From Patescibacteria group bacterium (GTDB lineage: Bacteria > Patescibacteriota > Patescibacteriia > Patescibacteriales > JBAZCA01), in the NCBI GenBank assembly GCA_041671125.1, contig JBAZCA010000006.1, forward strand, positions 3,184-67,183: a stretch of 64,000 nt of DNA, written 5' to 3'. The position numbers and the translations under genes are program-made. Positions 2,833-59,375 of the stretch are shown here, piece by piece (position 1 is the stretch's first letter; the number at the start of each line of letters is the position of its first letter). Below the pieces are notes generated by a model. That model was not told the DNA's origin and made no database searches. It worked only from the letters and a program-made list of their open reading frames with translations.

Positions 2833-3832
2833 GTTAAAATTTTTAATTATCGGTTTGGGCTCAATGGGCAAGCGAAGAATTCGCAACTTGTTTCATAATG
2901 GTCAAAAACTGATTATTGGATATGATATTCAGGCGAAACGGATGAAAGAAGCAAAAGAAAAATATGGTATCAAAACAGCGGATATAAAGGAAGTAGCCAA
3001 AAGCGATTATGAGGCCATGATTATTTCCACTCCGCCTGATCAGCATGGCGACTATGTCCGGATGGCTTTGCGGGACAAGAAACATTTTTTTGTTGAGCAC
3101 CCGACCAGCACTGACGGTTATAAAGAAATTTTTTTAAATAAGAATCCGCGGATCGCCAAAGCGCCATCTTGCACCTTGCTTTATTACCTGCCGATCAGGA
3201 TGATGAAAAAAATTTTGGATCAAGGTAAAATTGGCAAAGTCTTAGCCTTTCAATATCATATGGGTCAATATTTGCCTGACTGGCACCCTTGGGAAGATTA
3301 CCGCCGGGTTTATTATTCAAAAAAAGAAACCGGAGCCTGCCGGGAGATGTTGCCTTTTGAACTGATCTGGCTTAACCGGCTATTAGGTTCAAAAGTGAAA
3401 AAAATTTCCGGCGCCACAGGAAAGTTGTCTGACTTAAAAATGGAAGCGGATGATTTAATTAACGCTAACGTCCAATACGCCAATGGAATCAGGGGCAATA
3501 TTATTATTGACGTGATTGCCAGAAAACCTTACCGGACTTTGCGGCTTCTCGGATCGGATGGAGTCTTGGATTGGGAAAGATTTGATTTTAAAATAAAGGT
3601 TTATAATGCGAAAAATAAGAAGACAAAAATTATTGACGTTCCTAGAGGCCATCCAGAAACCGGCTATGTTAATGAAGAGGAAATGTATAATGAAGAAATC
3701 GGCGATTTTTTACGAGCTATTGACGGCAAAAAAGAATTTCCGCACAATTTTAAAGACAGTCAGCAAGTATTAAATACTCTTTACGCCCTGGAGAAAAGCA
3801 GTATCAGTGGCAGGGAGATAAGTGTGAAATAA
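2819..3832 (+). CDS. Gfo/Idh/MocA family oxidoreductase
   Basis: N-terminal Rossmann motif FLIIGLGSMGKRR and a 337-aa architecture typical of the family. The start overlaps the upstream gene by 14 nt. Confidence 0.7.
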   Translation: MEKNKLKFLIIGLGSMGKRRIRNLFHNGQKLIIGYDIQAKRMKEAKEKYGIKTADIKEVAKSDYEAMIISTPPDQHGDYVRMALRDKKHFFVEHPTSTDGYKEIFLNKNPRIAKAPSCTLLYYLPIRMMKKILDQGKIGKVLAFQYHMGQYLPDWHPWEDYRRVYYSKKETGACREMLPFELIWLNRLLGSKVKKISGATGKLSDLKMEADDLINANVQYANGIRGNIIIDVIARKPYRTLRLLGSDGVLDWERFDFKIKVYNAKNKKTKIIDVPRGHPETGYVNEEEMYNEEIGDFLRAIDGKKEFPHNFKDSQQVLNTLYALEKSSISGREISVK

Positions 3833-3851: not shown

Positions 3852-4997
3852 ATGGCGCAAGTAAGAAAAAAAATTCTAATAATAACCGGAACACGCGCTG
3901 AATACGGACTTTTGAAATCCACGATTGACGCTGTCAGGGAAAGTAATAAATTAAGTTTGCAACTTTTGGCAACCGGAATGCATACTTTGAAAAAGCATGG
4001 TTATAGTTTAGAAGCGATTAAAAAAGATGGTGTTCTAATTGACGGAGTGGTAAAAATCAAGGATAGTGATAGTATGATTGATACCTTGGCGGCGGAAATC
4101 ACTGGTATTAACAAATTTTGCCTGAAAAACCGTCCAGATTTAATTATTGTTTTAGGTGACCGGGATGAAGCTTTGGCTGGCGCGATCGTCGGCAGCCATC
4201 TAGGTATTCCCGTCGGGCATATTCATGGTGGAGATTACACAGGGACGATTGTTGATGGCCTCATTCGTCACGCCGTAACTAAGTTATCGCATCTTCATTT
4301 TACCGCCTGCCAAAAGAGCTTTGAGCGGGTTCGTCTTTTACAGGAAAACCCCAAAAATATTTTTTTAGTTGGTGCGCCGGGTTTGGATAATTTAAAGCAA
4401 AGATCTTTTTCATCGCGTAAAACTCTGGCGAAAAAGCTAAAAATTAATATTAACCGCTCCTGGTTGTTATTTTTGATGCATCCGACGCCTTTTTCGCCAA
4501 TTTCGCTTAAAACGCAGATAAGTAATCCGTTAAAGGCTATTAGCCGGCTTAAAGAATTTGAAAAAATTGTGATTTATCCCAACGCGGATACCGGTAGTGA
4601 TATTTTTATAAAGTCAATAAACTCGTATAAAAAAGACAATTCTTTCCGTATATTTTCCAACCTGCCGCGATTGGATTATCTTTCATTATTGGACGAAGTT
4701 GAATTTATGGTTGGCAACTCAAGTTCGGGAGTATTGGAATCAACTTATTTTAAACTGCCGGTGGTTAATATTGGTGATCGGCAGAAATATCGCGACCGGG
4801 GAAAGAATGTAATTGACTGCGGTTATAGTCTTAGCGCCATAATTAAAGCCATTAAGCTGGCCGCGGCTCCGGCTTTTAGGGAAATAGCAAAGAACGCGAT
4901 TAGTCCTTACGGCGATGGTGGCGCGGCAAAAAAAATCGTTAAAATTTTGGAAAACATAAAAGAAAAAGATTTAATTTTAAAAAAAACTTTTACCTAG
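3852..4997 (+). CDS. neuC: UDP-N-acetylglucosamine 2-epimerase, hydrolysing type (NeuC/LegG-like)
   Basis: Motifs ITGTRAEYGLL, VLGDRDEALAGA, HIHGGD and GNSSSG are characteristic of hydrolysing 2-epimerases. Confidence 0.7.
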   Translation: MAQVRKKILIITGTRAEYGLLKSTIDAVRESNKLSLQLLATGMHTLKKHGYSLEAIKKDGVLIDGVVKIKDSDSMIDTLAAEITGINKFCLKNRPDLIIVLGDRDEALAGAIVGSHLGIPVGHIHGGDYTGTIVDGLIRHAVTKLSHLHFTACQKSFERVRLLQENPKNIFLVGAPGLDNLKQRSFSSRKTLAKKLKININRSWLLFLMHPTPFSPISLKTQISNPLKAISRLKEFEKIVIYPNADTGSDIFIKSINSYKKDNSFRIFSNLPRLDYLSLLDEVEFMVGNSSSGVLESTYFKLPVVNIGDRQKYRDRGKNVIDCGYSLSAIIKAIKLAAAPAFREIAKNAISPYGDGGAAKKIVKILENIKEKDLILKKTFT

Positions 4998-5954: not shown

Positions 5955-6614
5955 ATGCAAAAAATGCTCATTATCGCCCCTCATCCTGATGACGAAGTTT
6001 TAGGATGCGGTGGGACAATAAAAAAATATTCAAAGGCGGGTGACGAAGTCTTTCTCTGCGTAGTTACCAAAGCCTATCCGCCGGAGTGGTCAAAATCGTT
6101 TATTAAAAACCGGGCGAAAGAAGTAGTCGCCGCGAATAACATTCTGGGAATAAAAAAAACATTCTTTTTGGATTTTCCCACGGTTAAGCTTGATACGGTT
6201 CCACAAAAAGAATTAAATGAAGCTATTCTGTCAGTTATTAAAATAGTAAAGCCGAGAATTGTTTATTTGCCCCATTGCGGTGATATTAATAAGGACCATC
6301 GCCTGGTTTTTGAGGCTGGACTGGTAGCCTTAAGGCCAAGTAATAATACTTCAGTTAAAAGAATATTATCTTATGAATCTTTATCGGAAACGGCCGAAGG
6401 AAGAAGTATTAAAGAGTTTTCTCCAACCATTTATGAAAAAATTGATAGTGAATTCGCGAAAAAAATACAGGCCATGAAAGCTTATAAAAGTGAAATTCGA
6501 AAATTTCCTCATCCTCGCTCGCTTGAGATGATGGAGGTGCTGGCTAAAAAAAGGGGGTCAGAAGCAGGCTATAGGCTGGCGGAAGCCTTTGTTTTAATTA
6601 GGGAAATATTATGA
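5955..6614 (+). CDS. PIG-L/LmbE family deacetylase
   Basis: IIAPHPDDEVLGCGGT and HCGDINKDH motifs. Confidence 0.75.
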   Translation: MQKMLIIAPHPDDEVLGCGGTIKKYSKAGDEVFLCVVTKAYPPEWSKSFIKNRAKEVVAANNILGIKKTFFLDFPTVKLDTVPQKELNEAILSVIKIVKPRIVYLPHCGDINKDHRLVFEAGLVALRPSNNTSVKRILSYESLSETAEGRSIKEFSPTIYEKIDSEFAKKIQAMKAYKSEIRKFPHPRSLEMMEVLAKKRGSEAGYRLAEAFVLIREIL

Positions 6615-10767: not shown

Positions 10768-12177
10768 TTATCTCCCCCCCCTTGAAACCACCGTCGCCAC
10801 GGTTTTTAAGATAATGGACAGATCCAGATAAATGGATCTGTTTTTTATATAAAAGAGGTCGTATTGCAGTTTCTTTAAGCTGTCTTCGTAAGACGGGGAA
10901 TGGTACTGTCCGGAAATCTGGTCCCAGCCGGTGGCGCCGGGCTTAACGAGCGTCCGTTCGCGGTAAAAAGGGATTTGCTTTTCCAATAAAGCGACCAGCT
11001 CCGGCCGTTCAGGCCGCGGGCCGACGAAACTCATTTCGCCTTTTAAGATGTTAATCGCCTGGGGGATTTCGTCAAGGCGGGTTTTCCGCATGAAACCGCC
11101 GAAGCCGGTTACGCGCGGATCATCCTCAACTGTCGGCGAACGGTCGTTGTCGTTTTCGCGCATGGAGCGGAATTTAAGCATTCGGAATTCATTCCCGTTT
11201 TTTCCGCTCCGGCTCATGCGGATGAAAACCGGCCCCCGGCTTTGGATTTTTATAATGATGGCAATTAACGGCCAGAAGGGAAGGGTAATAACGAGAATGG
11301 CGAGCGAGAGAATTATATCATAAGCCCGCTTAAAGAGGTCAAAGCCGCTTTTTTTTCCTTCGTTCATGTTTTCAAGAAACCACATCTCGCTGATAGCTTC
11401 AACCGGCACTTTGCCGGTAAGCTGTTCGTAAAAGTTCGCCAGACTCTGATACTTAATATTTAAAGGTAGACAGGAAAAAAGCGCTGTCCGAAGTTCGCCG
11501 GATTCGCGGGGATTTTCGGAAAAAATTAGCGCGGAAATTTTATTTTTTTCCGCCATATTTTTTAGCTCGCTGATTCTAATGATTGGCGGAAAAGTGAATT
11601 GATAACCCTGTTTATTAGCGGTTTCCGCCATGTTTTGGCCGGCTTGGTTTGCGTCGGCACTATTTTTTTCTTCAACAATAAACTTAACCTCATATCCGAG
11701 ATGGGGTTTTTTTATGAGATAAGCAATTAGTTCGCGGGACTGGCGGTTTAAACCGGCAAAAGCCAGGTTGGTTTTTGGCAGGCGCGACTTTAAAAGCCAG
11801 TTGCAGGCGCGCCGCCAGAGGATAAAAATAATGCCGTAGATGAAGATGAAAATTATCAGGTTTGTTTTTGGGGCAATGCCCATGCCGGGCGAAGCGTAAA
11901 AAAAGATGACCGAAAGCAGGGCGGCGACCAAGAGGCTTTGGGTTATTTTCCGGATGAACTCCGATCCATTAACCGCGGCTTTTAAATCGTAGAGGCCGGA
12001 GATGTAAAAAATAATTATCCAGCCGAAAAAAATGGCTGTAAAAGGAAAGAAATGATCCTGCCAGGTAGCGGCCGTCGGCAGGCTGAAATAGCGGAGGCTG
12101 AGGGCGAGATAAAGCGCCAAATATAGGAAAACAAAGTCGCCGAAAAGTATGGTGAATTTTTTTAAACGGTTATTCAT
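10768..12177 (-). CDS. Polyprenyl-phosphate glycosyl-1-phosphate transferase (WbaP/PglC-type sugar transferase)
   Basis: Four N-terminal TM segments plus a C-terminal Bac_transf domain (KRAYDIILSL, MLKFRSM, DEIPQAINILKGEMSFVGPRP). Confidence 0.85.
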   Translation of the reverse strand: MNNRLKKFTILFGDFVFLYLALYLALSLRYFSLPTAATWQDHFFPFTAIFFGWIIIFYISGLYDLKAAVNGSEFIRKITQSLLVAALLSVIFFYASPGMGIAPKTNLIIFIFIYGIIFILWRRACNWLLKSRLPKTNLAFAGLNRQSRELIAYLIKKPHLGYEVKFIVEEKNSADANQAGQNMAETANKQGYQFTFPPIIRISELKNMAEKNKISALIFSENPRESGELRTALFSCLPLNIKYQSLANFYEQLTGKVPVEAISEMWFLENMNEGKKSGFDLFKRAYDIILSLAILVITLPFWPLIAIIIKIQSRGPVFIRMSRSGKNGNEFRMLKFRSMRENDNDRSPTVEDDPRVTGFGGFMRKTRLDEIPQAINILKGEMSFVGPRPERPELVALLEKQIPFYRERTLVKPGATGWDQISGQYHSPSYEDSLKKLQYDLFYIKNRSIYLDLSIILKTVATVVSRGGR

Positions 12178-15654: not shown

Positions 15655-15730
15655 GGTAAAAAATCCTTAAAAAGGATTCCTGGCCTTTTAAAAAGGCCTG
15701 TCCCTGCTCGGGGAAAAATAAATAATAATT

Positions 15731-15812
15731 AAATTCAGCATTCTGGCTTTCCGCCTTGGGCGGATTACAGTTGCGGCACAGCGCCTGATTTTCACAGGAC
15801 TTTCCTGAATTT
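15731..15812 (-). promoter_or_regulatory. Cobalamin riboswitch aptamer (compact, short P6; class-II-like)
   Basis: Minus strand reads AAAUUCAG-GAAAGUCCUGUGAAAAUCAGGCGCUGUGCCGCAACUGUAA-uccgcccaaggcgga-AAGCCAGAAUG-CUGAAUUU. It contains the conserved GGAAA, GUGAAAAUC, CCGCAACUGUAA and B12-box-like AAGCCAG elements, and an 8-bp P1. Confidence 0.75.
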
Positions 15813-15824
15813 AATCTATTGTTA

Positions 15825-15854
15825 ATAGTAGCGGGTATAAATTTTACTGTCAAC
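15825..15854 (-). promoter_or_regulatory. Sigma70-type promoter for the riboswitch operon
   Basis: Minus-strand TTGACA (15854-15849), 18-nt spacer, TACTAT (15830-15825). Confidence 0.5.
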
Positions 15855-45110: not shown

Positions 45111-45261
45111 GATTGATTTTAACCTATAATTATCAGTTATGCAGCCAAGTATTTTTGTCCGCAATCAGATGATAAATAACCCCGATTTAATCTTATGGAA
45201 TTTTGTAAGATTAAAAATGAAATCGGAACTAACGGTTTTTTAGATTACGGTATAATTTTTC

Positions 45262-45612
45262 ATGAAAAAAATTCCTCAAAATTCACAAATCATTATTTAT
45301 AAAACCGAGGATGGCCGGACAAAAATTGACGTGCGTTTTGACGGCGATACGGTTTGGCTGGCGCAAAACGCTTTAGCCGAATTATTTCAGACCACTAAAC
45401 AAAACATCGGCCAGCACATAAAAAACATTACGGAAGAGGGGGAATTATCAGAAAATTCAACTGTAAAGAAATTCTTTACAGCTCAAAAAGAAGGCAATCG
45501 CGAGGTAAAAAGGGAAATAGAATTTTATAACCTAGATCTTATCATTTCCGTTGGCTACCGCGTTAAGAGTTCCATCGCCACGGCTTTTCGCCAATGGGCG
45601 ACGGTAATTTGA
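45262..45612 (+). CDS. RhuM-family protein, N-terminal fragment (truncated)
   Basis: IIIYKTEDGRTKIDVRFDGDTVWLAQNALAELFQ...ISVGYRVKSSIATAFRQWAT matches the RhuM N-terminus as I recall it. It stops where full-length members continue for about 200 aa. Confidence 0.6.
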   Translation: MKKIPQNSQIIIYKTEDGRTKIDVRFDGDTVWLAQNALAELFQTTKQNIGQHIKNITEEGELSENSTVKKFFTAQKEGNREVKREIEFYNLDLIISVGYRVKSSIATAFRQWATVI

Positions 45613-45624
45613 TATAATAAATTC

Positions 45625-46455
45625 ATGGAAAAAGAAATAATAAAAACTCTGGCGAAAAATTTTGAATCAATCGGCCAAAAAACCGATGACGGTTTGGAAT
45701 TTTGGCTGGCGCGCGATTTGCAGCATTTGCTCGGATATGACGAATGGAGGAATTTTCAAAATATCATATCCAAAGCGAAAACAGCCTGCGAAGTTTCGGG
45801 GCAAAAGATTGCCGATCATTTTGTTGATGTCAACAAAACGATAAAAATGCCCAAAAATGCCCAAAAAATTGTGCCGGACATCATGCTCACCCGCTACGCC
45901 TGCTATCTTATCGCCCAAAATGGCGATCCCAAAAAAGAAGAGATCGCTTTTGCCCAAACGTATTTTGCCGTTCAAACAAGAAAGATTGAAATTATCGAGC
46001 AAAGGATTTTGGAATCCGAAAGAGTGCAAGCCAGGAAAAAACTGGCGAAGACCGAAAAAGAACTTTCCGCGGTTATTTTTGAACAAACTGGGGATAACCG
46101 GAATTTTGCGTTCATTCGTTCCAAGGGCGACAAAGCGCTTTTCGGCCGGACGACGCAGGATATGAAAGCGCGATGGGGGATAAAAGACAAAAAGCCTTTG
46201 GCGGATTTTATGCCGACTATTCTTCTCAAAGCCAAGGATTTCGCGGCTGAAATTACGATTTTTAACGCCAAAAAGAGAGATATGCGGACGGAAAGTGAAA
46301 TTTCCAAGGAACATATAACGAACAATTCCAGTGTCAGAAAAACTTTGCAAAGCCGTGGGATCACGCCGGAAAATTTACCGCCGGAAAAGGATGTGAAAAA
46401 GGTGGAAAGAAAAATCAAGTCGGAAGGAAAGAAATTATTGAAAAAGAAAAAATAA
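45625..46455 (+). CDS. dinD: DNA-damage-inducible protein D homolog
   Basis: [36 protein letters not shown] and [10 protein letters not shown] parallel E. coli DinD along the whole 276 aa. Confidence 0.8.
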
Positions 46456-46466
46456 TCGGGTATAAT
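46438..46466 (+). promoter_or_regulatory. Consensus sigma70 promoter, copy 1 of a duplicated module
   Basis: TTGAAA, 17-nt spacer, TATAAT. The 29-nt string ttgaaaaagaaaaaataatcggStataat is repeated at 47506-47534. It overlaps the last dinD codons. Confidence 0.7.
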
Positions 46467-46529
46467 ATGCGCAGGGTAGGGACGCCTGCCTACCGGACAG
46501 GCAGGCATTGTAATGTGTCTCTGCAGGAT

Positions 46530-46600
46530 AAATAATAAAATCGAACCCCGTTAAATCCGCCCGGCGGATATGCGTCGGGATAAATACAAAAACATGAAAG
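46530..46600 (+). promoter_or_regulatory. Conserved 71-nt leader, copy 1
   Basis: 65 of 71 nt are identical to 47545-47615, and all 6 differences are transitions. It ends in acaaaaacATGaaag. Separated from the promoter by a copy-specific insert (46467-46529) with a GC hairpin. Confidence 0.6.
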
Positions 46601-46652
46601 ATATGTTCACCGCTCTCTTAAAAGAAAACTGAAAACTTTATTTTAAAGTGTT

Positions 46653-47486
46653 ATGGATAATAAAATTGCCATTTTTGAAAACTTCAAAATCCGTCGTCAC
46701 TATGACGAAAAGGCGGAGGTTTGGTATTTTTCTGTGGTGGACATAATCCGGGCATTGTTGGAACAGCCAGATTTTCAAACGGCCAGGAAATACTGGAACA
46801 AACTCAAAGAGAGGCTTAAGAATGAAGGAAGTGAGTCGGTGACAAAATGTCACCGACTGAAATTGGAGGCAGCTGACGGGAAAAAGTATCTTACTGATGT
46901 AGCCAATCCCGAAACTATTTTACGCATTATTCAATCGGTGCCGTCCAAGAAAGCCGAACCGATTAAATTGTGGCTGGCTAAGGTTGGATATGAGCGAATT
47001 CAGGAAATGTCCGATCCTGAAAAATCATTGAATCGGGCCAGAGAGAACTGGAAAAATCATGGTCGCAGCCAGAAATGGATCCAGCAGAGAATGATGGGGC
47101 AGGAAACCAGAAATAAGCTGACGGATTATTGGAATGAACACGGAGTTAAAGAAAAAGACGAATTCGCGATTCTCACTAATATTATCCATAAAGAGTGGTC
47201 CGAGCTGTCTGTCAAAGAACACAAAAACCTAAAAGGGTTAAAAGCGCAAAACTTGCGCGACCATATGAGCGAGGCGGAATTGATTTTCACGGCTCTGGCG
47301 GAAATGTCAACCCGGCAGATTGCCGAAACCGATAACGCGGAAGGAATGGCGGAGAATAAATTAGCCGGAAAAAGAGGCGGCGGAATAGCCAAAAGAGCCA
47401 GAATTGACTTGGAACAGAGAACCGGTCAGAAAGTAATTTCCGGAAAGAATTTTTTGATGAAAAGAAACGTTAAGAAATTGAAATAA
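46653..47486 (+). CDS. Bro-N domain protein (prophage antirepressor-like)
   Basis: N-terminal FENFKIRRHYDEKAEVWYFSVVDIIRAL is Bro-N-like. The C-terminal DYWNEHGVKEKDEFAILTNIIHKEW...NLRDHMSEAEL region is typical of this family. Confidence 0.7.
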   Translation: MDNKIAIFENFKIRRHYDEKAEVWYFSVVDIIRALLEQPDFQTARKYWNKLKERLKNEGSESVTKCHRLKLEAADGKKYLTDVANPETILRIIQSVPSKKAEPIKLWLAKVGYERIQEMSDPEKSLNRARENWKNHGRSQKWIQQRMMGQETRNKLTDYWNEHGVKEKDEFAILTNIIHKEWSELSVKEHKNLKGLKAQNLRDHMSEAELIFTALAEMSTRQIAETDNAEGMAENKLAGKRGGGIAKRARIDLEQRTGQKVISGKNFLMKRNVKKLK

Positions 47487-47505
47487 CGCGAAAAAGCTGC
47501 TGTTG

Positions 47506-47534
47506 TTGAAAAAGAAAAAATAATCGGCTATAAT
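47506..47534 (+). promoter_or_regulatory. Consensus sigma70 promoter, copy 2
   Basis: TTGAAA, 17-nt spacer, TATAAT. Differs from copy 1 at a single position. Confidence 0.7.
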
Positions 47535-47544
47535 ATAGTTAGTC

Positions 47545-47615
47545 AAATAATAAAATCAAACCCCATTAAACCCGCCTGGCGGATATGTGTCGGGATAGAT
47601 ACAAAAACATGAAAG
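47545..47615 (+). promoter_or_regulatory. Conserved 71-nt leader, copy 2
   Basis: See copy 1. Contains the ATG at 47609. Confidence 0.6.
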
Positions 47616-47630
47616 CCGTCTCTCTCCCCA

Positions 47631-50600
47631 GTGGAATACTTGCTCCGCAAATTCCACGGGGTAAACTCTCTCTCTCTCTCTCTTAGTAAAGACGCATTGC
47701 AATGCGTCTCTACCCAAAATCTAAAATTTTCCAGATTTGTTTTTGTCTTCCTGTTATTTTTGGGAAGTTTTTTTGTTTTCGGAGCGGGGAAGGCGAGCGC
47801 GGTTTACCCCGTTGCCGGCTGGCGTAAATTTCTTCTGACTGGACTGTTATGCAGTTTTTTTATTTTTCTCGGCGGACTGGCTTTTGCCTCTCCGGCATAC
47901 GGGGCGACGTATTATGTTGATAAAACTTGTGTTACAAATGGGAATGGTAGCTATAAATCTGGCGGTGGTTGCGCTGATGTTGTCGGGGAAGAGGGTCCTT
48001 ATAATACTTTAACAAATACGCCAACTGGAAATATCTATTTATTCGCTGGAGGAAAAACGCATAATTATAATACAAATCTAAATTTTACAAACGCTAATAC
48101 AGAAATTGGTTCTTATGACTTGGCTACCGGATTGCGTTTAACTGATGGAAGTAATAAGGCTATTCTTAATTTTTCATCCGGTTATGGAGTAGCAACTGCT
48201 GTTTCTACTTCGGGAGGAAATGTTCTTTCAAATCTGGAGATAATAAGAGGCGACATAACCGGCACCGCAGTGAGTCATGGATATTGGGTTGGCTCATTTA
48301 CCATGAGTCACGTTGAGGTGAGTGGCGGATTGTATGGAGCAAACATAAGACCCAGTAGCGGTACACCTTCAGATGTGACAATAGAAGACTGCACCTTTGA
48401 AAATGCCGGAGGTATCCAGTCGGCATTACAGGTTAAAGGGTTGAATTCTACTACATTAGCAACAAATGTGACCATTCTAGATACTATTATTAGGGATAAT
48501 TCGAATGTAGGAGGAAATTTTGAGAATATTAATAACCTAACCATGGAAAGGGTTACTTCTACAGGCAATAAGGTTGGCTTGAGTTTTAAATATATCACTA
48601 ATTTTTCCATAACAGATAGTTCTGGAAATAATAATGGTGATGGAATCAATACTGGTAGTGGGATTAGATTTGATTCGGGATGTTCAAATGGTATTGTGCG
48701 GGGATGTGAGGCAAGTGAAAACTCAGAAGACGGATTCACTTTCGTGGATACGGTTCCATCAGTTGCTCCGCAAGGTATTGATCTTTATACGTGCAAGGCG
48801 CATCTAAATGGAGATTTGGATGATACGACCATTCCTTCTAACGCGGGGGATGGATTTACCGTGCACTCATCTGCTAATGACATAAATGCTTATTATAGTG
48901 ATTTTTCCCTTAACCATAATAGCGGTGCTGCAGTCGTTGGAACTTCCTCAGGGAGCCTTATAAATTGTGTTCTTTCGGGCAATGGGTATGATGATGGCGT
49001 TGAAGGTTTTAACGGACCTTACGAAAATCGAGGTGGACTAGCGATACAAAGCACTGATAATTGGACGGTAAAAAATAGCATTATATCAAAAAATTGGCCC
49101 AGAGAAATAAAATTAGATACCAACAGCAAGAGCCATTTTATTGGTTATAATAATAACTATTACAACACAGAAGGAGAAGACGAATCTTTTTCTTTAGATG
49201 GTGGAGCAACTTTTTCTGGAAGCTATTCAGCTTTTCTGGCCGGTCTAGTTATCCCGGCTTTAGATAATAGTAGCCTATATGTCGATGCTAAATTTATTTC
49301 CTCCTCTAACTTTAACTTGCAATCCACTTCCCCCGCCATCGACTCCGGCACCGATGTCTCCCTCACCACCGACTACGCCGGCAACCCGATCTATGGCACT
49401 CCCGACATTGGCGCCTATGAATACCAGCCGCCCTACACCATAGGAACAACCGCCGTCCCCCAAACCGGCTCGGTTCGGATTTACTCTAACGGCAAGTACC
49501 GGGCGCTCATTGCCTCTACTACCGCTGACACTATTACTCCGGCCAACTTCTCGGTCGTACCCGCCGGAGGCGGGTACTATACCGCCTCCACCTCGGCATT
49601 CATGGATTTAAACATTGATAATTGGGAAATGACCGGAAACAAGAATAAATCCTGGACAGCAACGTCCTCGGCCGACGGAGTCGGCCAAACTCACGCCACC
49701 AGCACAGTATTCACTATCGGCGATTTAACCCCGGATAGCTACTACACGTTCAAGATTGACGGTTCGGCCACCACTACCGCTATCACCGGTTACGGAACTA
49801 CGACCTGTTCCCCGAGCATCGGGGACAACACCAATATCGCCTGCCTCTCCGATTCCTCGGGCATTGTCCAATTCACCTACTCCGGCGGCTATTCCACTCA
49901 TACGTTTTCCCTGGAAAAGGACATAACCAGCCCGGCCGGGTTTACTGTCTCTTCGCCAGCCAATAATACGGTTAACTCCGACTCCCGCCCGGTTCTCTCC
50001 TGGAACGCCTCGTCTGACACAGAATCAGGAATAGCTAAATATAAACTCTACATAGATAATGCCCTGGACTCTGACAATATTTCTAATACTGCCACCTCCC
50101 AAACCCCGGGTCAGAACCTCGCCTGCGGTTCCCATAGCTGGTATGTCACAGCTGTGGACAATAACGGCAATACTACTAACTCCAACACGTTTAACTATAC
50201 CCGGGACTGTAATACGATTCCAATCTACTTGCTAAACAGCCAGAATAATAATAACAATACTGCCAATACCAATAATGACAATAATAGCGATACCAGTCCG
50301 GATGATGACGCGTCAGGAGATGATAGTGAGGGAAGTGATGTTAGTGATAATCAGGAGAACAAAACAGCAACCCAGCAAAACAGCGTAGAGACGCCCCGGC
50401 GGGGCGTCTCTACGCTGGAAAAGCTAATGTCCGAGGCCAGAGAGATAATCGCGATTAAAACCAATACCCTAAATAATTTCATCGCCAACGGCACGGACAC
50501 TACCAAAACCCTCGGCGCGGGCGAAAGAGCCGGAGTAACCGCCTCGTTTAAATCGGCCTTTGGCCGCAACCCGGCTACTGAAACCGACTGGCAGGACGTA

Positions 50601-50885
50601 ATTAAAATCGCCAACGGAAGATGGCCCGGCCAAAAGAACGAAAAAACCGAGGCTAACGCCTCGGCCGCTTTCAAAAAGATTTACCAAAGAGAACCGGACA
50701 AAACCAATCCGCATGACAATAACGCTATTGCCATAATCTCTTACGGCCTCCGGCCAGCCAGCCGTAACCTCAATTCAGAGAAAAAATCTATTCAATTCTT
50801 CAAAAACATCTACGGCTACGCGCCGAAATCGGCGATGGCCTGGGACATTGTGAGAGCGATTGCCTATTCCGGGGCGAAACGGTAG
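47631..50885 (+). CDS. Large secreted right-handed beta-helix (PbH1/pectate-lyase-fold) protein with Ig/FN3-like domains, Asn/Asp-rich linker and conserved C-terminal tri-repeat module
   Basis: Two signal-peptide-like hydrophobic segments. Repeated NxGxGI/beta-helix turns (SGNNNGDGINTGSGIRF, SENSEDGFTF, NAGDGFTVH). The start codon is uncertain (GTG 47631, TTG 47694, or ATG 47609 after a frame change). Confidence 0.7.
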   Translation: MEYLLRKFHGVNSLSLSLSKDALQCVSTQNLKFSRFVFVFLLFLGSFFVFGAGKASAVYPVAGWRKFLLTGLLCSFFIFLGGLAFASPAYGATYYVDKTCVTNGNGSYKSGGGCADVVGEEGPYNTLTNTPTGNIYLFAGGKTHNYNTNLNFTNANTEIGSYDLATGLRLTDGSNKAILNFSSGYGVATAVSTSGGNVLSNLEIIRGDITGTAVSHGYWVGSFTMSHVEVSGGLYGANIRPSSGTPSDVTIEDCTFENAGGIQSALQVKGLNSTTLATNVTILDTIIRDNSNVGGNFENINNLTMERVTSTGNKVGLSFKYITNFSITDSSGNNNGDGINTGSGIRFDSGCSNGIVRGCEASENSEDGFTFVDTVPSVAPQGIDLYTCKAHLNGDLDDTTIPSNAGDGFTVHSSANDINAYYSDFSLNHNSGAAVVGTSSGSLINCVLSGNGYDDGVEGFNGPYENRGGLAIQSTDNWTVKNSIISKNWPREIKLDTNSKSHFIGYNNNYYNTEGEDESFSLDGGATFSGSYSAFLAGLVIPALDNSSLYVDAKFISSSNFNLQSTSPAIDSGTDVSLTTDYAGNPIYGTPDIGAYEYQPPYTIGTTAVPQTGSVRIYSNGKYRALIASTTADTITPANFSVVPAGGGYYTASTSAFMDLNIDNWEMTGNKNKSWTATSSADGVGQTHATSTVFTIGDLTPDSYYTFKIDGSATTTAITGYGTTTCSPSIGDNTNIACLSDSSGIVQFTYSGGYSTHTFSLEKDITSPAGFTVSSPANNTVNSDSRPVLSWNASSDTESGIAKYKLYIDNALDSDNISNTATSQTPGQNLACGSHSWYVTAVDNNGNTTNSNTFNYTRDCNTIPIYLLNSQNNNNNTANTNNDNNSDTSPDDDASGDDSEGSDVSDNQENKTATQQNSVETPRRGVSTLEKLMSEAREIIAIKTNTLNNFIANGTDTTKTLGAGERAGVTASFKSAFGRNPATETDWQDVIKIANGRWPGQKNEKTEANASAAFKKIYQREPDKTNPHDNNAIAIISYGLRPASRNLNSEKKSIQFFKNIYGYAPKSAMAWDIVRAIAYSGAKR
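47666..47683 (+). repeat. (CT)9 dinucleotide tract
   Basis: ctctctctctctctctct read directly. Lies between ATG 47609 and the body of the 1084-codon ORF. Confidence 0.95.
47686..47713. repeat. Family-D palindrome at the 5' end of the surface-protein ORF
   Basis: gtaaagacgcattgcaatgcgtctctac: 14-nt arms with one mismatch around a perfect 20-nt core. Confidence 0.75.
50382..50416. repeat. Family-D perfect palindrome embedded in-frame in coding sequence
   Basis: agcgtagagacgcccc-ggc-ggggcgtctctacgct (16-bp arms), translated as SVETPRRGVSTL. The core matches the terminator palindrome at 28351-28379 except for one base per arm. Confidence 0.9.
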
Positions 50886-55857: not shown

Positions 55858-58800
55858 TTATAACTCAGATTTCATTCCTTTAGGCATGTATTCTCGCCAG
55901 GATTTAATTTTTAAATCCTCAAGCGATTTTTCGGTCAGGGCTTTGATAAAAGAACGGGTCAGCTGTAAATCGGTAAAAAGCGGGATGTGCGAATCAACCG
56001 CGGCCCGGCGGATAAGATAGCCGTCAGTAACTTCGCCGCCGGATTTTTTTATTCTATCGCCGTTTTGTTCGCTTATGTTAATGACAAAGGCGACTTTTTT
56101 TTCGTTGATAAGGTCAATGACGCTAGGCATTTTTCCTTCGTTTAGTTTATAAACTATTTCAGCCGGAATTTCGCGTTCTTTTAAGAATTCATAAGTCGCG
56201 CCGGTGGCGTAGAGTCTGTAGCCGGCGTCAGAGAGGAGCTTAATGGCTTCAAAAAGCCGGCGCTTATTAACCGGGCCGCCAAGAGTTAAGAGGGCGGATT
56301 TTTTTTCGGTCAGGTTCGTAGAAGCGAGAATAGCTTTTAAGAGCGCTTCGCCAAGATCAGCGCCAAAGGCGGCCACTTCGCCGGTTGAAGACATTTCAAC
56401 TTTTAAGACCGGGTCGGCGCCCGCGAGGCGGGCAAAAGAAAACTGGGGTGATTTTACGACTACGTAATCGGGATAAGAAAGCCGGACTTTTGATCCTTTT
56501 TTGTAAAAGGCGTCAACGATTAAGCCGGCGAAATTAACTCCCGAGGCCTTAGAGATAAAAGGCAGGGTGCGGCTGGCGCGCAAGTTAATTTCAATCACGT
56601 AAACTTTATTTTCTTTAACGAGGAACTGGATATTATACGGGCCGGTAATGCGCAAAGCAATGGCGAGTCGGCGGCTGATTTTTTTTATTTCCTCCTCGGT
56701 TGAAGAAAAGACTTTTTGGGTCGGGTAGGCGATAGTAGCGTCGCCGGAATGGACGCCGGCATTTTCTAAATGCTCGGAGATAGCGTAAACGAGCGTAACT
56801 CCGTCCTGGGCTACCGCGTCGTATTCTATTTCTTTGGCGTTAACCATGAATTTTGACACCGTAACCGAATATTTTTTTGCGGTCAGTCCCAGGGCTTTTT
56901 CCACGAAATTTTCTATGTCAGCGTCGTTAAAACAAACGCTCATGGCCGAACCGGAAAGGACGTAAGACGGCCGGACGAGAACCGGATAACCGACCCGGTC
57001 GGCGAAAGTTTTCGCTTCGGCGATTGAAGCGCAATTGGCCCATTCGGGCTGAGGGATGTCTAATTCGTCGCATAACCGCGAAAATTTTCCCCGGTCTTCG
57101 GCCCGGTTTATATTTTCGGGCGCGGTGCCAAGAATCGGCACTTTATTTTCATGGAGCTTATTGGCGAGGTTGTTCGGGCGCTGGCCGCCGACGGAGATTG
57201 CTACTCCGCCGGATTTTTCAAAGTCATGAATATCCAGTACGGTTTCAAGGTTTAAGTCTTCAAAATAGAGCCGGTCAGACATGTCATAATCCGTAGAAAC
57301 GGTTTCCGGATTGCAGTTGACGATGATTGATTTTTTTCGGTATTTTTTTAATGAGAGAGCGGTATTGACGCATGACCAGTCAAACTCAACCGAAGAGCCG
57401 ATATGGTAGGGGCCGGAGCCTAAAACCATGACAGCTTTTTTTCCGAGCGGACGAACGTCATGATGCGAGCCGTGATAAGTAAGATATAAATAGTTGGTTT
57501 TAGCCGGGACTTCGCCTGCCAGAGTATCAATCTGGAAAACTGAAGGTATTACTTTCAGTTTTTTCCTTAGGGCGCGGACTTCGGTTTCGGTTTTTCCCGC
57601 GAGCTTGCCAATAATCTTATCCGAAATTCCGGCCTGCTTGCATTTTAACAGGGTTTCTTTATTAAGCTTTTTATTTTCGCCGAGCTCTTTTTCAATGTCC
57701 ATGATATTTTTAAGGCGATAGAGAAACCAGGGATCAATGCCGGTCATTCTATAAATTTTTTCTACTTCCATTCCGCGCTTAAAGCCTTCGGCTAAAGCAA
57801 AAATTCTTTTCGGGGTCGGAATTTTAATCCATCTTTCCAGGTCAGGCGTGGCCGTATTGAAGCCGGCGTAAGATATGCCCCTAGCTTTTGAAGCGAGCAT
57901 GCGCACGGCTTTCTGCAGGGCTTCTTCAAAGGAGCGGCCGATAGCCATCACTTCGCCGACCGATTTCATGGCCGAGCCGATGGTCTCTTCGGCGCCGGAA
58001 AATTTTTCTAAATCCCAGCGCGGAATTTTTACGGCAACGTAGTCCAGAGCCGGTTCAAAAAAGCTTTGCGTAACTTTGGTCACCTGGTTTTGGACTTTAT
58101 TTAAAGTAATGCCGAGCGCCAGCTTAGCGGCGACGTAAGCTAAAGGATAGCCGGTGGCTTTGGACGCCAGAGCCGAAGAGCGCGATAACCGGGCGTTTAC
58201 TTCAATGACAAAATATTCCAGTTCGTTTTTTTCCGGTTTGGGGTTTAGGGCGAACTGGACATTACATTCGCCGACGATGCCAAGACTTTGGACTATTTTA
58301 ATAGAGATCTGTCTTAGAGCGTGATATTCGTCATTAGTTAAGGTCTGTGACGGGGCGACTACTATGGATTCGCCGGTATGGATACCTAAAGGATCCATGT
58401 TTTCCATATTACAGACGGTAACGCAGTTGCCGGCCGCGTCGCGCACCACTTCGTATTCAATTTCTTTAAAATGATGAAGGTATTTTTCAATAAGCACTTG
58501 TGGGGAGACGGCCAGGGCGGCGGAAACAATCTCAGTAAGCTGTTTTTCGTCATAAGCCACGCCGGATTTTTGCCCGCCTAAGGTAAACGCGGCCCGAACC
58601 ATAACCGGATAGCCGATTTTTTCCGCGATTTTTTTTGCCTGTTCCAGGCTGGTGGCGGCCGCGCTAGGCGGAACCGTTATGTCAATGTTTCGTAAATGGT
58701 CGGCGAATTTCTGTCGGTCTTCGGTTAATTCAATGGCCGAGACCGGAGTGCCTAAAACTTCTACCCCGTACTTTTTTAAGACGCCTTTGTCATATAATTC

Positions 58801-59097
58801 TAAACCGCAGTTTAAGGCGGTTTGCCCGCCAAAGGATAAAAGGATGCCGTCGGGCTTTTCTTTGGCAATGATTTTTTCAACGAAATAAGGAGTAACCGGC
58901 AGGAAATATATTTCGTCGGCTAAAAGCGGGGAAGTCTGAATCGTCGCGATATTCGGGTTGATTAAGACCGTTTTTATCCCTTCTTCTTTTAAGGCTTTTA
59001 AACCTTGCGATCCGGAATAATCAAACTCACCAGCCTCGCCGATTTTTAAGGCGCCGGAACCGAGCACTAATACTTTTTTTATCTTCATTTTTTTCAT
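55858..59097 (-). CDS. carB: Carbamoyl-phosphate synthase large subunit
   Basis: 1079 aa. Duplicated ATP-grasp halves and the N-terminus KVLVLGSGALKIGEAGEFDYSGSQ. Confidence 0.97.
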   Translation of the reverse strand: MKKMKIKKVLVLGSGALKIGEAGEFDYSGSQGLKALKEEGIKTVLINPNIATIQTSPLLADEIYFLPVTPYFVEKIIAKEKPDGILLSFGGQTALNCGLELYDKGVLKKYGVEVLGTPVSAIELTEDRQKFADHLRNIDITVPPSAAATSLEQAKKIAEKIGYPVMVRAAFTLGGQKSGVAYDEKQLTEIVSAALAVSPQVLIEKYLHHFKEIEYEVVRDAAGNCVTVCNMENMDPLGIHTGESIVVAPSQTLTNDEYHALRQISIKIVQSLGIVGECNVQFALNPKPEKNELEYFVIEVNARLSRSSALASKATGYPLAYVAAKLALGITLNKVQNQVTKVTQSFFEPALDYVAVKIPRWDLEKFSGAEETIGSAMKSVGEVMAIGRSFEEALQKAVRMLASKARGISYAGFNTATPDLERWIKIPTPKRIFALAEGFKRGMEVEKIYRMTGIDPWFLYRLKNIMDIEKELGENKKLNKETLLKCKQAGISDKIIGKLAGKTETEVRALRKKLKVIPSVFQIDTLAGEVPAKTNYLYLTYHGSHHDVRPLGKKAVMVLGSGPYHIGSSVEFDWSCVNTALSLKKYRKKSIIVNCNPETVSTDYDMSDRLYFEDLNLETVLDIHDFEKSGGVAISVGGQRPNNLANKLHENKVPILGTAPENINRAEDRGKFSRLCDELDIPQPEWANCASIAEAKTFADRVGYPVLVRPSYVLSGSAMSVCFNDADIENFVEKALGLTAKKYSVTVSKFMVNAKEIEYDAVAQDGVTLVYAISEHLENAGVHSGDATIAYPTQKVFSSTEEEIKKISRRLAIALRITGPYNIQFLVKENKVYVIEINLRASRTLPFISKASGVNFAGLIVDAFYKKGSKVRLSYPDYVVVKSPQFSFARLAGADPVLKVEMSSTGEVAAFGADLGEALLKAILASTNLTEKKSALLTLGGPVNKRRLFEAIKLLSDAGYRLYATGATYEFLKEREIPAEIVYKLNEGKMPSVIDLINEKKVAFVINISEQNGDRIKKSGGEVTDGYLIRRAAVDSHIPLFTDLQLTRSFIKALTEKSLEDLKIKSWREYMPKGMKSEL

Positions 59098-59109: not shown

Positions 59110-59375
59110 GTCATCCTGAGCGGAGCGAAGGATCTGCTAACGCGTCTTACGCGTTTGCTTATTATAGCGTTCGCTCAGCTCCAACACCTGTCCGGTGTTC
59201 CAATATGCGGTTTATAATATTATTTGTGATTCCGGTGTAAAAAATCGTTATATTAAAATTCGTCAGTATATAAACGTAATATCGGCGCTCGTCTCTCATA
59301 ACATTAATCAGCTATGATTCATTATTTCGCAATTCTCATCCGTAGATCCTTCCTCCCTACGGTCGTCAGGATGAC
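59110..59375. mobile_element. Family-A element carrying an internal GIY-YIG gene remnant
   Basis: Termini gtcatcctgagcggagcgaaggatctgc / gtagatccttcctccctacggtcgtcaggatgac enclose 200 bp that include a truncated GIY-YIG ORF. Confidence 0.75.
59162..59299 (-). pseudogene. Truncated GIY-YIG nuclease gene (45 codons)
   Basis: Manual translation of the minus strand gives MRDERRYYVYILTNFNITIFYTGITNNIINRILEHRTGVGAERTL*. This is the canonical GIY...YIG N-terminus, stopping after the EHR motif. Confidence 0.7.

Follow-up and report, generated by a model that had tools for sequence, protein, structure and literature searches.

A putative duplicated expression head in a mosaic candidate-defence island of a Patescibacteria genome, beside a probably phase-variable giant surface gene

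In a 64-kb stretch of contig JBAZCA010000006.1 from a Patescibacteria group bacterium (the whole stretch analysed, hereafter the window; G+C content 44%), a Bro-N gene and the gene for a giant protein of 1084 amino acids, which follows it, are each preceded by the same promoter-like block and the same 71-nt leader. How did this promoter-leader module come to stand twice in the locus, and what does it do there? An initial annotation described it as a portable module in front of two unrelated genes and offered three options, namely a shared cis-regulatory RNA, a protein-binding site or the junction sequence of a cassette-insertion mechanism. With moderate confidence, we favour a duplicated "expression head" in a mosaic island of candidate defence genes, beside a giant surface gene that is probably phase-variable. 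Judged by its sequence, we read the module as a rearrangement product of known kinds and not as a new riboswitch.

Anatomy of the two module copies

The duplication itself is clear. A 34-nt promoter block occurs at 46435-46468 and 47503-47536 (32/34 identical, 94%) and a 71-nt block at 46530-46600 and 47545-47615 (65/71 identical), with all six differences in the latter being transitions, exactly as first reported. An nhmmer profile of the 71 nt recovered the two known copies at E about 1e-23 each, and no further match with E < 1 in the 64 kb. The copies differ additionally by a 53-nt indel, and the flanks of each run into different sequence. The parts of the module, all on the plus strand, are as follows.

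46438-46466, plus strand: promoter copy 1, TTGAAA-17-TATAAT, 11/12 consensus positions, repeat family D3
46467-46529, plus strand: 63-nt nested hairpin at the predicted transcript 5' end, found also in two relatives (a Moranbacteria contig and the short contig L007)
46530-46600, plus strand: 71-nt leader copy 1, consisting of a hairpin, an A-rich stretch and then the ATG at 46594-46596
46594-46632, plus strand: 12-codon dead-end open reading frame (ORF) (MKDMFTALLKEN*), opened by the copy 1 ATG and read directly from the sequence
47489-47523, plus strand: out-of-frame relic of a RhuM-type gene 3' end (..KKLLLLKKKK*), past the Bro-N stop and forming the left end of copy 2
47506-47534, plus strand: promoter copy 2, TTGAAA-17-TATAAT, 11/12 consensus positions, repeat family D3
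47545-47615, plus strand: 71-nt leader copy 2, with in-frame ATGs at 47585 and 47609

The two promoter sites are the top two promoter-like sites of the region and are of predicted sigma-70 type in sequence (-35 and -10 hexamers, spacing of 16-18 nt). Each copy thereby presents a predicted near-consensus promoter facing the next gene, as proposed earlier. The -35 box of copy 1 overlaps the stop of the upstream gene, which is of the DinD type and has LLKKKK* as its last codons. About 9 nt after the -10 box starts the 63-nt hairpin, with outer stem 46476-46485/46515-46524, inner stem 46486-46490/46500-46504 and the signature GCCTGCC...GGCAGGC. The smaller hairpin of leader copy 1 pairs 46560-46566 with 46573-46579 and holds an AUG (46570-46572) in its loop.

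Both copies end in ACAAAAACATGAAAG, in agreement with the initial annotation, and in neither copy is the module-terminal ATG the start of the annotated gene. The 12-codon ORF opened in copy 1 stops 20 nt ahead of the Bro-N ATG; it contains CTCTCT, which by-eye comparison suggests as a possible remnant of the CT tract described below. The ORF opened by the terminal ATG of copy 2 has 25 codons and is not in frame with the giant ORF. No terminator was found at either window copy, and the repeat analysis of the window gave no terminal inverted repeats for the module. A degenerate third trace of the module, thought to lie around 45170-45195, is attributable to chance, with 101/500 and 188/500 shuffles scoring as high or higher.

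That the leader is no recognised riboswitch held up: Rfam 15 at gathering thresholds, run over the whole window, had no match in the module region, and a permissive search (E <= 10) of 45-48 kb returned nothing relevant, the best hit being manA-II with 24.9 bits against a gathering threshold of 100 (E = 0.26). Single-sequence folds are unremarkable (z-scores of -1.3 to -2.2). The hairpin AUCCGC-CCG-GCGGAU suggested at first loses one pair in 3/4 sequences (the two window copies and those of the two relatives), and is replaced here by the overlapping CCYGGCG-GAUAUG-YGUCGGG, which fits 4/4. Together with the nested 5' hairpin, the latter gives a structure of 22 pairs in which 73/73 stem cells of the four sequences pair. 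All six one-sided stem changes, four of which fall in the stems of the 63-nt hairpin, yield G·U on the plus strand and would give C·A mismatches on the minus strand. If each transition were equally likely to keep or to break a pair, this outcome would have a chance of about 1/64, which is suggestive of pairing at the RNA level. In the search for structure-supporting covariation, no compensatory double substitutions were seen in the 22 pairs, across four sequences with too little divergence to be decisive. A structure or terminator on the minus strand was also considered, as two substitutions between the window copies seemed G·U-compatible there, and was dropped when, with four sequences and the better hairpin, all changes fitted the plus strand.

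Relatives, mosaic island and origin of the duplication

To place the module in a wider context, exact-pattern scans covered 185,579 species genomes (one per GTDB species), JGI metagenomes and viral contigs. These patterns demand 21-23 exact bases, and diverged copies could have escaped them. Within this scope, the scans gave two other independent instances only, with one copy each: the sole convincing genome match, Candidatus Moranbacteria RIFOXYA12_FULL_44_15, and the short contig L007. The viral contigs held no module match, and three further pattern matches in GC-rich genomes were rejected as chance. When leader and hairpin profiles were run with nhmmer on the window and 30 fetched loci, the known instances alone were recovered. 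The Moranbacteria contig was fetched under four handles (L003, L006, L008 and L018) and recurs in ten more assemblies, all identical. Conservation in relatives, on which the initial annotation had staked its case, is thus borne out, while the description as a portable, dispersed module is not. Likewise, two copies in 64 kb and the lack of terminal inverted repeats do not match dispersed elements such as repetitive extragenic palindromic (REP) elements, miniature inverted-repeat transposable elements or Correia-like elements.

The gene order in these relatives is the key to the duplication. On the Moranbacteria contig, Bro-N is followed by an out-of-frame relic ..ctgctattgaaaaagaaaaaataa, the promoter, the 63-nt hairpin, the 71 nt, ATGAAAGCCG(TC)7 with a stop, and a terminator, past which lies a different surface-protein gene. 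On L007, a full-length RhuM gene is followed by promoter, 63-nt hairpin, 71 nt and Bro-N, and then directly by an orthologous giant gene; here the module-terminal ATG is mutated to ACG, and the 5' end of the giant gene is quite different and nearly leaderless. Since this orthologue does without the leader, the leader is not essential for that gene. The context of window copy 1 is that of L007 and the context of copy 2 is that of the Moranbacteria contig; the window therefore combines both single-copy arrangements, which places Bro-N between direct repeats. This is the pattern of a segmental duplication, with relatives that carry one module only upstream (L007) or only downstream (Moranbacteria) of Bro-N. 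The 63-nt hairpin is taken as ancestral because it is present in 3/4 instances. Its description as a copy-specific insert is correct inside the window, where copy 1 alone has it, and fails beyond it: both relatives carry it at the same site, and copy 2 is the odd one out. Furthermore, a RhuM-type 3' end, or what is left of such a gene, makes up the left end of the module in 4/4 instances. The module does precede two genes, but the emphasis on unrelated downstream genes has to be revised, as in all four instances it follows a RhuM-, DinD- or Bro-N-type gene or its relic.

The genes concerned form an island of 5.8 kb with the following content.

45262-45612, plus strand: RhuM-family N-terminal fragment, 116 amino acids (Pfam Virulence_RhuM; PADLOC PDC-S05, E = 1e-49)
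45625-46455, plus strand: DinD-type Bro-N gene (PDC-S13; NCBIfam NF008573 DNA damage-inducible protein D, E = 1e-111; PADLOC PDLC04919)
46653-47486, plus strand: second Bro-N gene (PDC-S13), between the module copies (Pfam Bro-N; PADLOC PDLC04920, E = 3e-119)
47631-50885, plus strand: giant secreted beta-helix/choice-of-anchor-Q ORF, 1084 amino acids (Pfam Beta_helix; NCBIfam choice_anch_Q)

In PADLOC, each of the three small genes falls under a candidate single-gene defence system (PDC-S05 or PDC-S13). The island is set among housekeeping sugar-phosphate genes. Those for a PRPP-synthase-like (phosphoribosyl pyrophosphate synthase-like) protein, ribulose-phosphate epimerase, GlpX and a class I aldolase lie on one side of the island, and a split transketolase, RpiB, a lyase and aspartate carbamoyltransferase on the other; no recombinase (integrase or transposase) was found within about 8 kb of it. 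The mosaic character is visible in the genes themselves. The RhuM fragment covers positions 1-49/252 of the Virulence_RhuM profile only and is cut off by the next gene. The latter, of the DinD type, begins 12 nt past the fragment and may be transcribed as a leaderless mRNA, since a TATAAT of its own stands 8 nt ahead of the ATG. Its tail KKLLKKKK*, which constitutes the left end and -35 box of copy 1, resembles the RhuM tails of L007 and of L009, a more distant Patescibacteria metagenome-assembled genome (MAG), as if the body of a RhuM gene had been replaced by DinD. Proteins of the Bro-N family usually terminate in ..KKLK*, and the extra KKLLLLKKKK* string behind the window Bro-N can be aligned with the genuine 3' ends of RhuM in L007 and L009, in the latter together with the promoter. 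In L009, a 35-nt direct repeat of tail plus promoter stands on both sides of RhuM.

The Bro-N gene at 46653-47486 has thousands of homologues at 74-87% identity, annotated from groups of the candidate phyla radiation (CPR), Elusimicrobia, Planctomycetes, Deltaproteobacteria, Nitrospinae, Coxiellaceae and others. Such identity across phyla implies a very mobile gene with rapid horizontal spread; for a gene without an assigned function, this conservation is unusually high. Several homologues sit in settings worth recording in their own right. In a Parcubacteria genome (L012, 4001-4849), a homologue with its own ATTGGCTATAAT promoter, together with a PDDEXK_3 gene, is inserted in the rpsL-rpsG-fusA-tuf ribosomal operon. 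In another CPR contig (L019), Bro-N is flanked by an 84-nt direct repeat (207-290 and 1204-1287, 94% identical). It includes a REP-like palindrome of 45 nt and has overwritten the upstream gene and Bro-N at their 3' ends; a gene for an IS200-like Y1 transposase, resembling REP-associated tyrosine transposases, directly follows. Downstream of Bro-N in L014 (2021-2256), a 39-nt direct repeat, 197 nt apart, brackets a relic of a Bro-N/DinD-type 3' end (..AREKLEKRTGKKVSSSKNYL.., by-eye translation) and would be another decayed cassette junction.

Concerning more distant leaders, the giant genes of L009 and L013, both from the same sample, share their own promoter-leader-ATG region of ~190 nt with a GCCTGCC...GGCAGGC hairpin. 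Homology of this leader to the 71 nt was considered and rejected, the convincing alignment being limited to the promoter and ATACAAAAAC(A)TGAAA. In L009, L012, L013 and the Moranbacteria contig, ATYGGSTATAAT is found ahead of Bro-N, RhuM or giant genes. As the other five window matches of CGGNTATAAT are intragenic, it was discarded as a genome-wide promoter motif.

In terms of conservation, the module is 92-94% identical between three lineages. Compared with the Moranbacteria contig, it is identical at 153/163 positions, against 65% at the third codon positions of Bro-N, which is 82% identical overall and ranges from 62% to 96% nucleotide identity across 90-nt blocks. L007 and the window share the module and the first ~45 nt of Bro-N and then diverge. 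The conservation of the module may therefore reflect either nucleotide-level constraint or recent exchange; the swings in Bro-N identity make recent exchange plausible and do not allow it to be separated from constraint.

Based on these data, the two module copies would be paralogous copies of one expression head of 110 to 165 nt. Its parts would be the last codons of a RhuM-type gene (LLKKKK*, supplying the -35 box), a near-consensus sigma-70 -10 box, a structured 5' untranslated region (UTR) and an AUG in an A-rich, unstructured context that lacks a Shine-Dalgarno sequence. The 5' UTR would combine an optional nested hairpin at the transcript 5' end with the 71-nt stretch and its small hairpin, and the most likely roles of this RNA part would be to protect the 5' end and to present or expose the start AUG. 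The home of the head would be a mosaic island of ~1-kb single-gene candidate-defence cassettes in a Moranbacteria-like CPR bacterium, where recombination among the conserved cassette ends may have left Bro-N between two heads. Copy 2 would then have become promoter, UTR and start codon of the giant gene, in a frame set by a (CT)9 tract and OFF in the assembly. Copy 1 would be a head stranded before Bro-N that provides a promoter and a long 5' UTR only, its ATG being dispensable (dead-end ORF in the window, mutated in L007). The duplication could have arisen by Campbell-type homologous integration of a circle of Bro-N plus module, from two RhuM-module units, one of which later lost its RhuM body, or by a one-sided, homology-facilitated insertion. 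Promoter activity, transcription start (predicted near 46473 and 47541) and the order of the rearrangements are what we infer from the sequence.

The dinucleotide tract of the giant gene

The start of the giant gene raises a second question, as the ATG at 47609, at the end of copy 2, is probably its start codon and is followed by a simple repeat. The features between the module and the signal-peptide-like stretch of the giant protein (47724-47801, by eye, without a predictor) are these.

47626-47661, plus strand: extra hairpin CCCC-A-GTGGAAT ... ATTCCAC-GGGG, between the ATG and the CT tract, absent in the Moranbacteria copy
47666-47683, plus strand: (CT)9, candidate slippage tract (Tandem Repeats Finder)
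47686-47713, plus strand: palindrome GTAAAGACGCATTGCAATGCGTCTCTAC, inverted repeat I10

The (CT)9 tract is the sole dinucleotide array in the window and lies 57 nt downstream of the ATG. No stop interrupts the frame of this ATG ahead of the tract, the giant frame is already open where the tract begins, and the two are out of frame by one CT unit. By frame arithmetic, a change of +1 or -2 units fuses the ATG to the giant ORF (MKAVSLPSG...SLSLSKDALQ...KFSRFVFVFLLFLGSFFVFGAGKASA...). As in contingency loci, the tract appears to lie in the 5' coding region, the frame is set by the number of units and the product is of surface type, judged by the signal-peptide-like N-terminus (by eye) and the Beta_helix and choice-of-anchor-Q domains. 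Comparable tracts are found in the giant genes of L007, L009 and L013 at the same position, between ATG and signal peptide.

Window, giant gene: (CT)9, 47666-47683, OFF as assembled, ON at +1 or -2 units
L007, giant gene: (GA)10, 1452-1471, OFF as assembled, ON at -1 unit
L009, giant gene: G9, 6144-6152, ON as assembled
L013, giant gene: G11, 4936-4946, OFF as assembled, ON at -1 unit
L014, L015 and L016, reverse-transcriptase gene: AG tract at 949-964, 3781-3794 and 113-126, respectively, intact in L014, frameshifted in L015 and L016

In L007, L009 and L013, reading of the sequence from the repeat to the charged start of the signal peptide gave no in-frame ATG, GTG or TTG, and the tract must therefore be coding there. 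A difference in length between assemblies was seen at the reverse-transcriptase gene listed last, which neighbours a Bro-N gene. Three metagenome assemblies of a single CPR organism, with the same Bro-N protein (L014 versus L015 and L016), are identical at 1170/1173 positions over the aligned region, and their sole indel is one AG unit, (AG)8 versus (AG)7, located 34 nt into this gene. This indel shows directly that repeat tracts slip in this group, and the reverse transcriptase, intact in one assembly and frameshifted in two, looks phase-variable. In L015, its neighbours are bAvd and an Lcl_C target gene; diversity-generating retroelements are laid out in this way, and the reverse transcriptase appears to be part of one. 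The remnant (TC)7 of the Moranbacteria contig is unchanged in 11 assemblies.

Taken together, slippage of (CT)9 appears to turn the giant gene of the window ON and OFF, a feature that the initial annotation had not noted, and it is from the frames and the related tracts that we infer actual switching. Searching with the N-terminus predicted for the ON phase gave no match and missed even the known relative P0121, which makes it uninformative; a search with 500 amino acids of the giant protein gave one match. No report of repeat-driven phase variation in CPR/Patescibacteria was found in the searchable literature, the closest case being a hypervariable PTD-repeat surface gene of a Gracilibacterium, which is a different phenomenon (PMC6851277).

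Some further observations on the window may be added. The perfect palindromes at 47626-47661, 47686-47713 and 46476-46524 (CCCCAGTGGAAT/ATTCCACGGGG, AGACGCATTGCAATGCGTCT and GCCTGCC/GGCAGGC, respectively), recorded as mutually unrelated, look like insertions when compared with the relatives and suggest that these genomes contain small mobile hairpin elements. The window has only one other simple repeat of a slippage-prone class, a C8 homopolymer at 10774-10781, which reads G8 on the coding strand and falls in the final codons of a Bac_transf sugar-transferase gene (10768-12177, minus strand). A 1079-aa ORF at 55858-59097 was considered as a second giant surface gene and rejected, as its N-terminus resembles carbamoyl-phosphate synthase (by eye). 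Upstream of this apparent carbamoyl-phosphate synthase gene, at 59110-59300 on the minus strand, inspection by eye suggested the remnant of an ORF, short and with a GIY-YIG-like start (..YYVYILTN..), and behind it a palindromic repeat. An adenosylcobalamin (cobalamin) riboswitch is located at 15693-15832 on the minus strand and scores above the Rfam gathering threshold with 61.1 bits.

Competing explanations and meaning for the candidate phyla radiation

Several points weigh against the reading as a duplicated expression head beside a phase-variable gene. Four independent instances are too few to resolve how the events followed one another (duplication, two insertions, or loss of a second RhuM by deletion). 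The identity of ~94% of the module against 65% at the third positions of Bro-N would fit a constraint on an RNA or a DNA site at least as well, and such high conservation hints at a function more specific than "promoter plus UTR". On the Moranbacteria contig, the module runs into a stop and a good intrinsic terminator with no long ORF, yet it is identical in 11 assemblies. Regarding the switch, (CT)9 was seen at one length, as exact-protein look-ups gave only a 1.7-kb Logan contig that ends inside copy 1. In addition, a TTG within the palindrome at 47686-47713 could start the giant protein past the tract; the CT tract might then lie in the UTR here, which makes the window a less clean case than L007, L009 and L013.

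Part of these points would be accommodated by a specific cis-regulatory RNA, be it a sensor, an attenuator or a leader bound by protein, with joint control over Bro-N and the giant protein; we nevertheless regard such an RNA as unlikely. In its favour speak the 153/163 conserved positions against 65% at neighbouring synonymous sites, the six of six stem changes that keep pairing on the plus strand, two mutually exclusive hairpins sharing a GGCGG segment, and the attenuator-like layout of short ORF and terminator behind the Moranbacteria module. However, no Rfam family was matched even at E <= 10, compensatory double changes are absent from the four sequences, the fold energies are unremarkable (z-scores of -1.3 to -2.2), and the exact-pattern scans confine the element to one narrow lineage. 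Moreover, the orthologous giant gene of L007 lacks the element, the 63-nt hairpin is dispensable in copy 2, and recent exchange in a mosaic region accounts for the conservation equally well. Thus, the first option of the initial annotation, a shared cis-regulatory RNA, found no confirmation. The terminated Moranbacteria unit, in which the promoter is followed after about 230 nt by a 9-bp stem and a T7 tail, and which is identical in 11 assemblies, would also suit a free-standing small gene with its own promoter, encoding either a small RNA of ~230 nt or a tiny peptide (MRRDKYKNMK...) and lying ahead of other genes by coincidence only, and the ORF from the loop AUG is indeed open in 4/4 copies. 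We consider such a gene improbable, as neither window copy has a terminator, the peptide lacks conservation at the protein level, with the changes R/C, K/R and M/T against one synonymous change, its ends differ in length, the reading frame differs from that of the related L009/L013 sequence, and the 11 assemblies probably represent one clonal population.

Of the three options first offered, the cassette junction comes nearest to our reading, insofar as the module sits at the junctions of a mosaic gene array; a dedicated insertion mechanism finds less support, with no integrase or transposase within about 8 kb. In its strict form, with the repeats as attachment or target sites for site-specific or transpositional insertion of ~1-kb single-gene cassettes, in the manner of integrons or non-autonomous elements and with duplication of the target, we give this explanation little credence. 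It can point to three independent loci where a single cassette lies between direct repeats (the window; L009 with 35 nt; L019 with 84 nt) and to a Bro-N that is 74-87% identical across phyla and interrupts the fusA-tuf operon in L012. But the repeated sequences are wholly different between the loci and the cassette ends are not conserved, which leaves no fixed att site or terminal repeat, and the REP-like palindrome beside the IS200-like Y1 transposase in L019 may have spread on its own. Nor does the module resemble an integron cassette, since, apart from the missing recombinase, the attC core GTTRRRY is present in copy 1 only (GTTAAAT), the other copies having ATTAAAC or GCTAAAC. Chance similarity or an assembly artefact is close to negligible in view of E about 1e-23 for each copy, of six differences plus a 53-nt indel, of differing flanks, and of both arrangements recurring separately in independent assemblies. 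Finally, we tentatively entertain a wider version of the expression-head reading as a possible, less probable extension: a contingency system of CPR bacteria in which giant surface proteins, and even a reverse transcriptase, would be switched by (CT)n, (GA)n or poly-G slippage after the start codon, with the head as its constant 5' module. The head would then be near-identical between loci and lineages because it serves as expression signal and as homology substrate for cassette swapping, as in an antigenic-variation locus.

The expression head and its tract may be compared with several known systems. Contingency loci such as Neisseria opa (CTCTT) or the homopolymer and tetranucleotide tracts of Haemophilus and Campylobacter likewise place a hypermutable tract between start codon and signal peptide of a surface protein, are ON or OFF by repeat number modulo 3, use different repeat types at one position and have most alleles OFF. 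In contrast, the host here is an uncultivated CPR bacterium, the products are beta-helix/choice-of-anchor-Q proteins of more than 1000 amino acids, and ON/OFF variants were seen only at the reverse transcriptase of a neighbouring locus and not at the giant gene. Cassette turnover is familiar from defence islands, where PDC-S05 and PDC-S13 are often found in type I restriction-modification loci; here, tandem, truncated and mosaic ~1-kb genes stand between housekeeping genes. Unlike in such islands, the junctions carry a conserved, outward-facing consensus promoter that derives in part from the 3' coding end of the upstream cassette, and the array abuts a giant surface-protein gene instead of a restriction-modification system.

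Stem-loops at the 5' end stabilise transcripts such as that of E. coli ompA, in its 5' UTR, and Bacillus leaders that shield from RNase J1. The module is similar in having a strong hairpin ~9 nt past the -10 box, near the predicted 5' end, with substitutions that preserve pairing, and an RNase J gene was found in a related genome; its hairpin differs in being optional, because copy 2 lacks it. With Neisseria Correia elements and with REP elements or bacterial interspersed mosaic elements, the module has in common a short palindromic intergenic unit able to bring a promoter, and the palindrome at 47686-47713 repeats, in partial form, the outer stem and loop of the 63-nt hairpin. It differs from them in not being dispersed (two copies in 64 kb, one in the relative's genome) and in having neither terminal inverted repeats nor a target-site duplication.

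In consequence, the duplicated promoter-leader itself is ordinary and illustrates how defence islands are assembled, with each cassette inheriting a strong promoter. The more interesting lead is phase variation by simple repeats in the CPR. These bacteria live as obligate episymbionts; for host attachment and phage recognition, the prime candidates are their giant surface proteins. Four giant genes from at least three organisms carry slippery repeats where classical pathogens have their phase-variation switches. If true, this would extend stochastic ON/OFF switching to the CPR and would provide a sequence signature for host-interaction genes.

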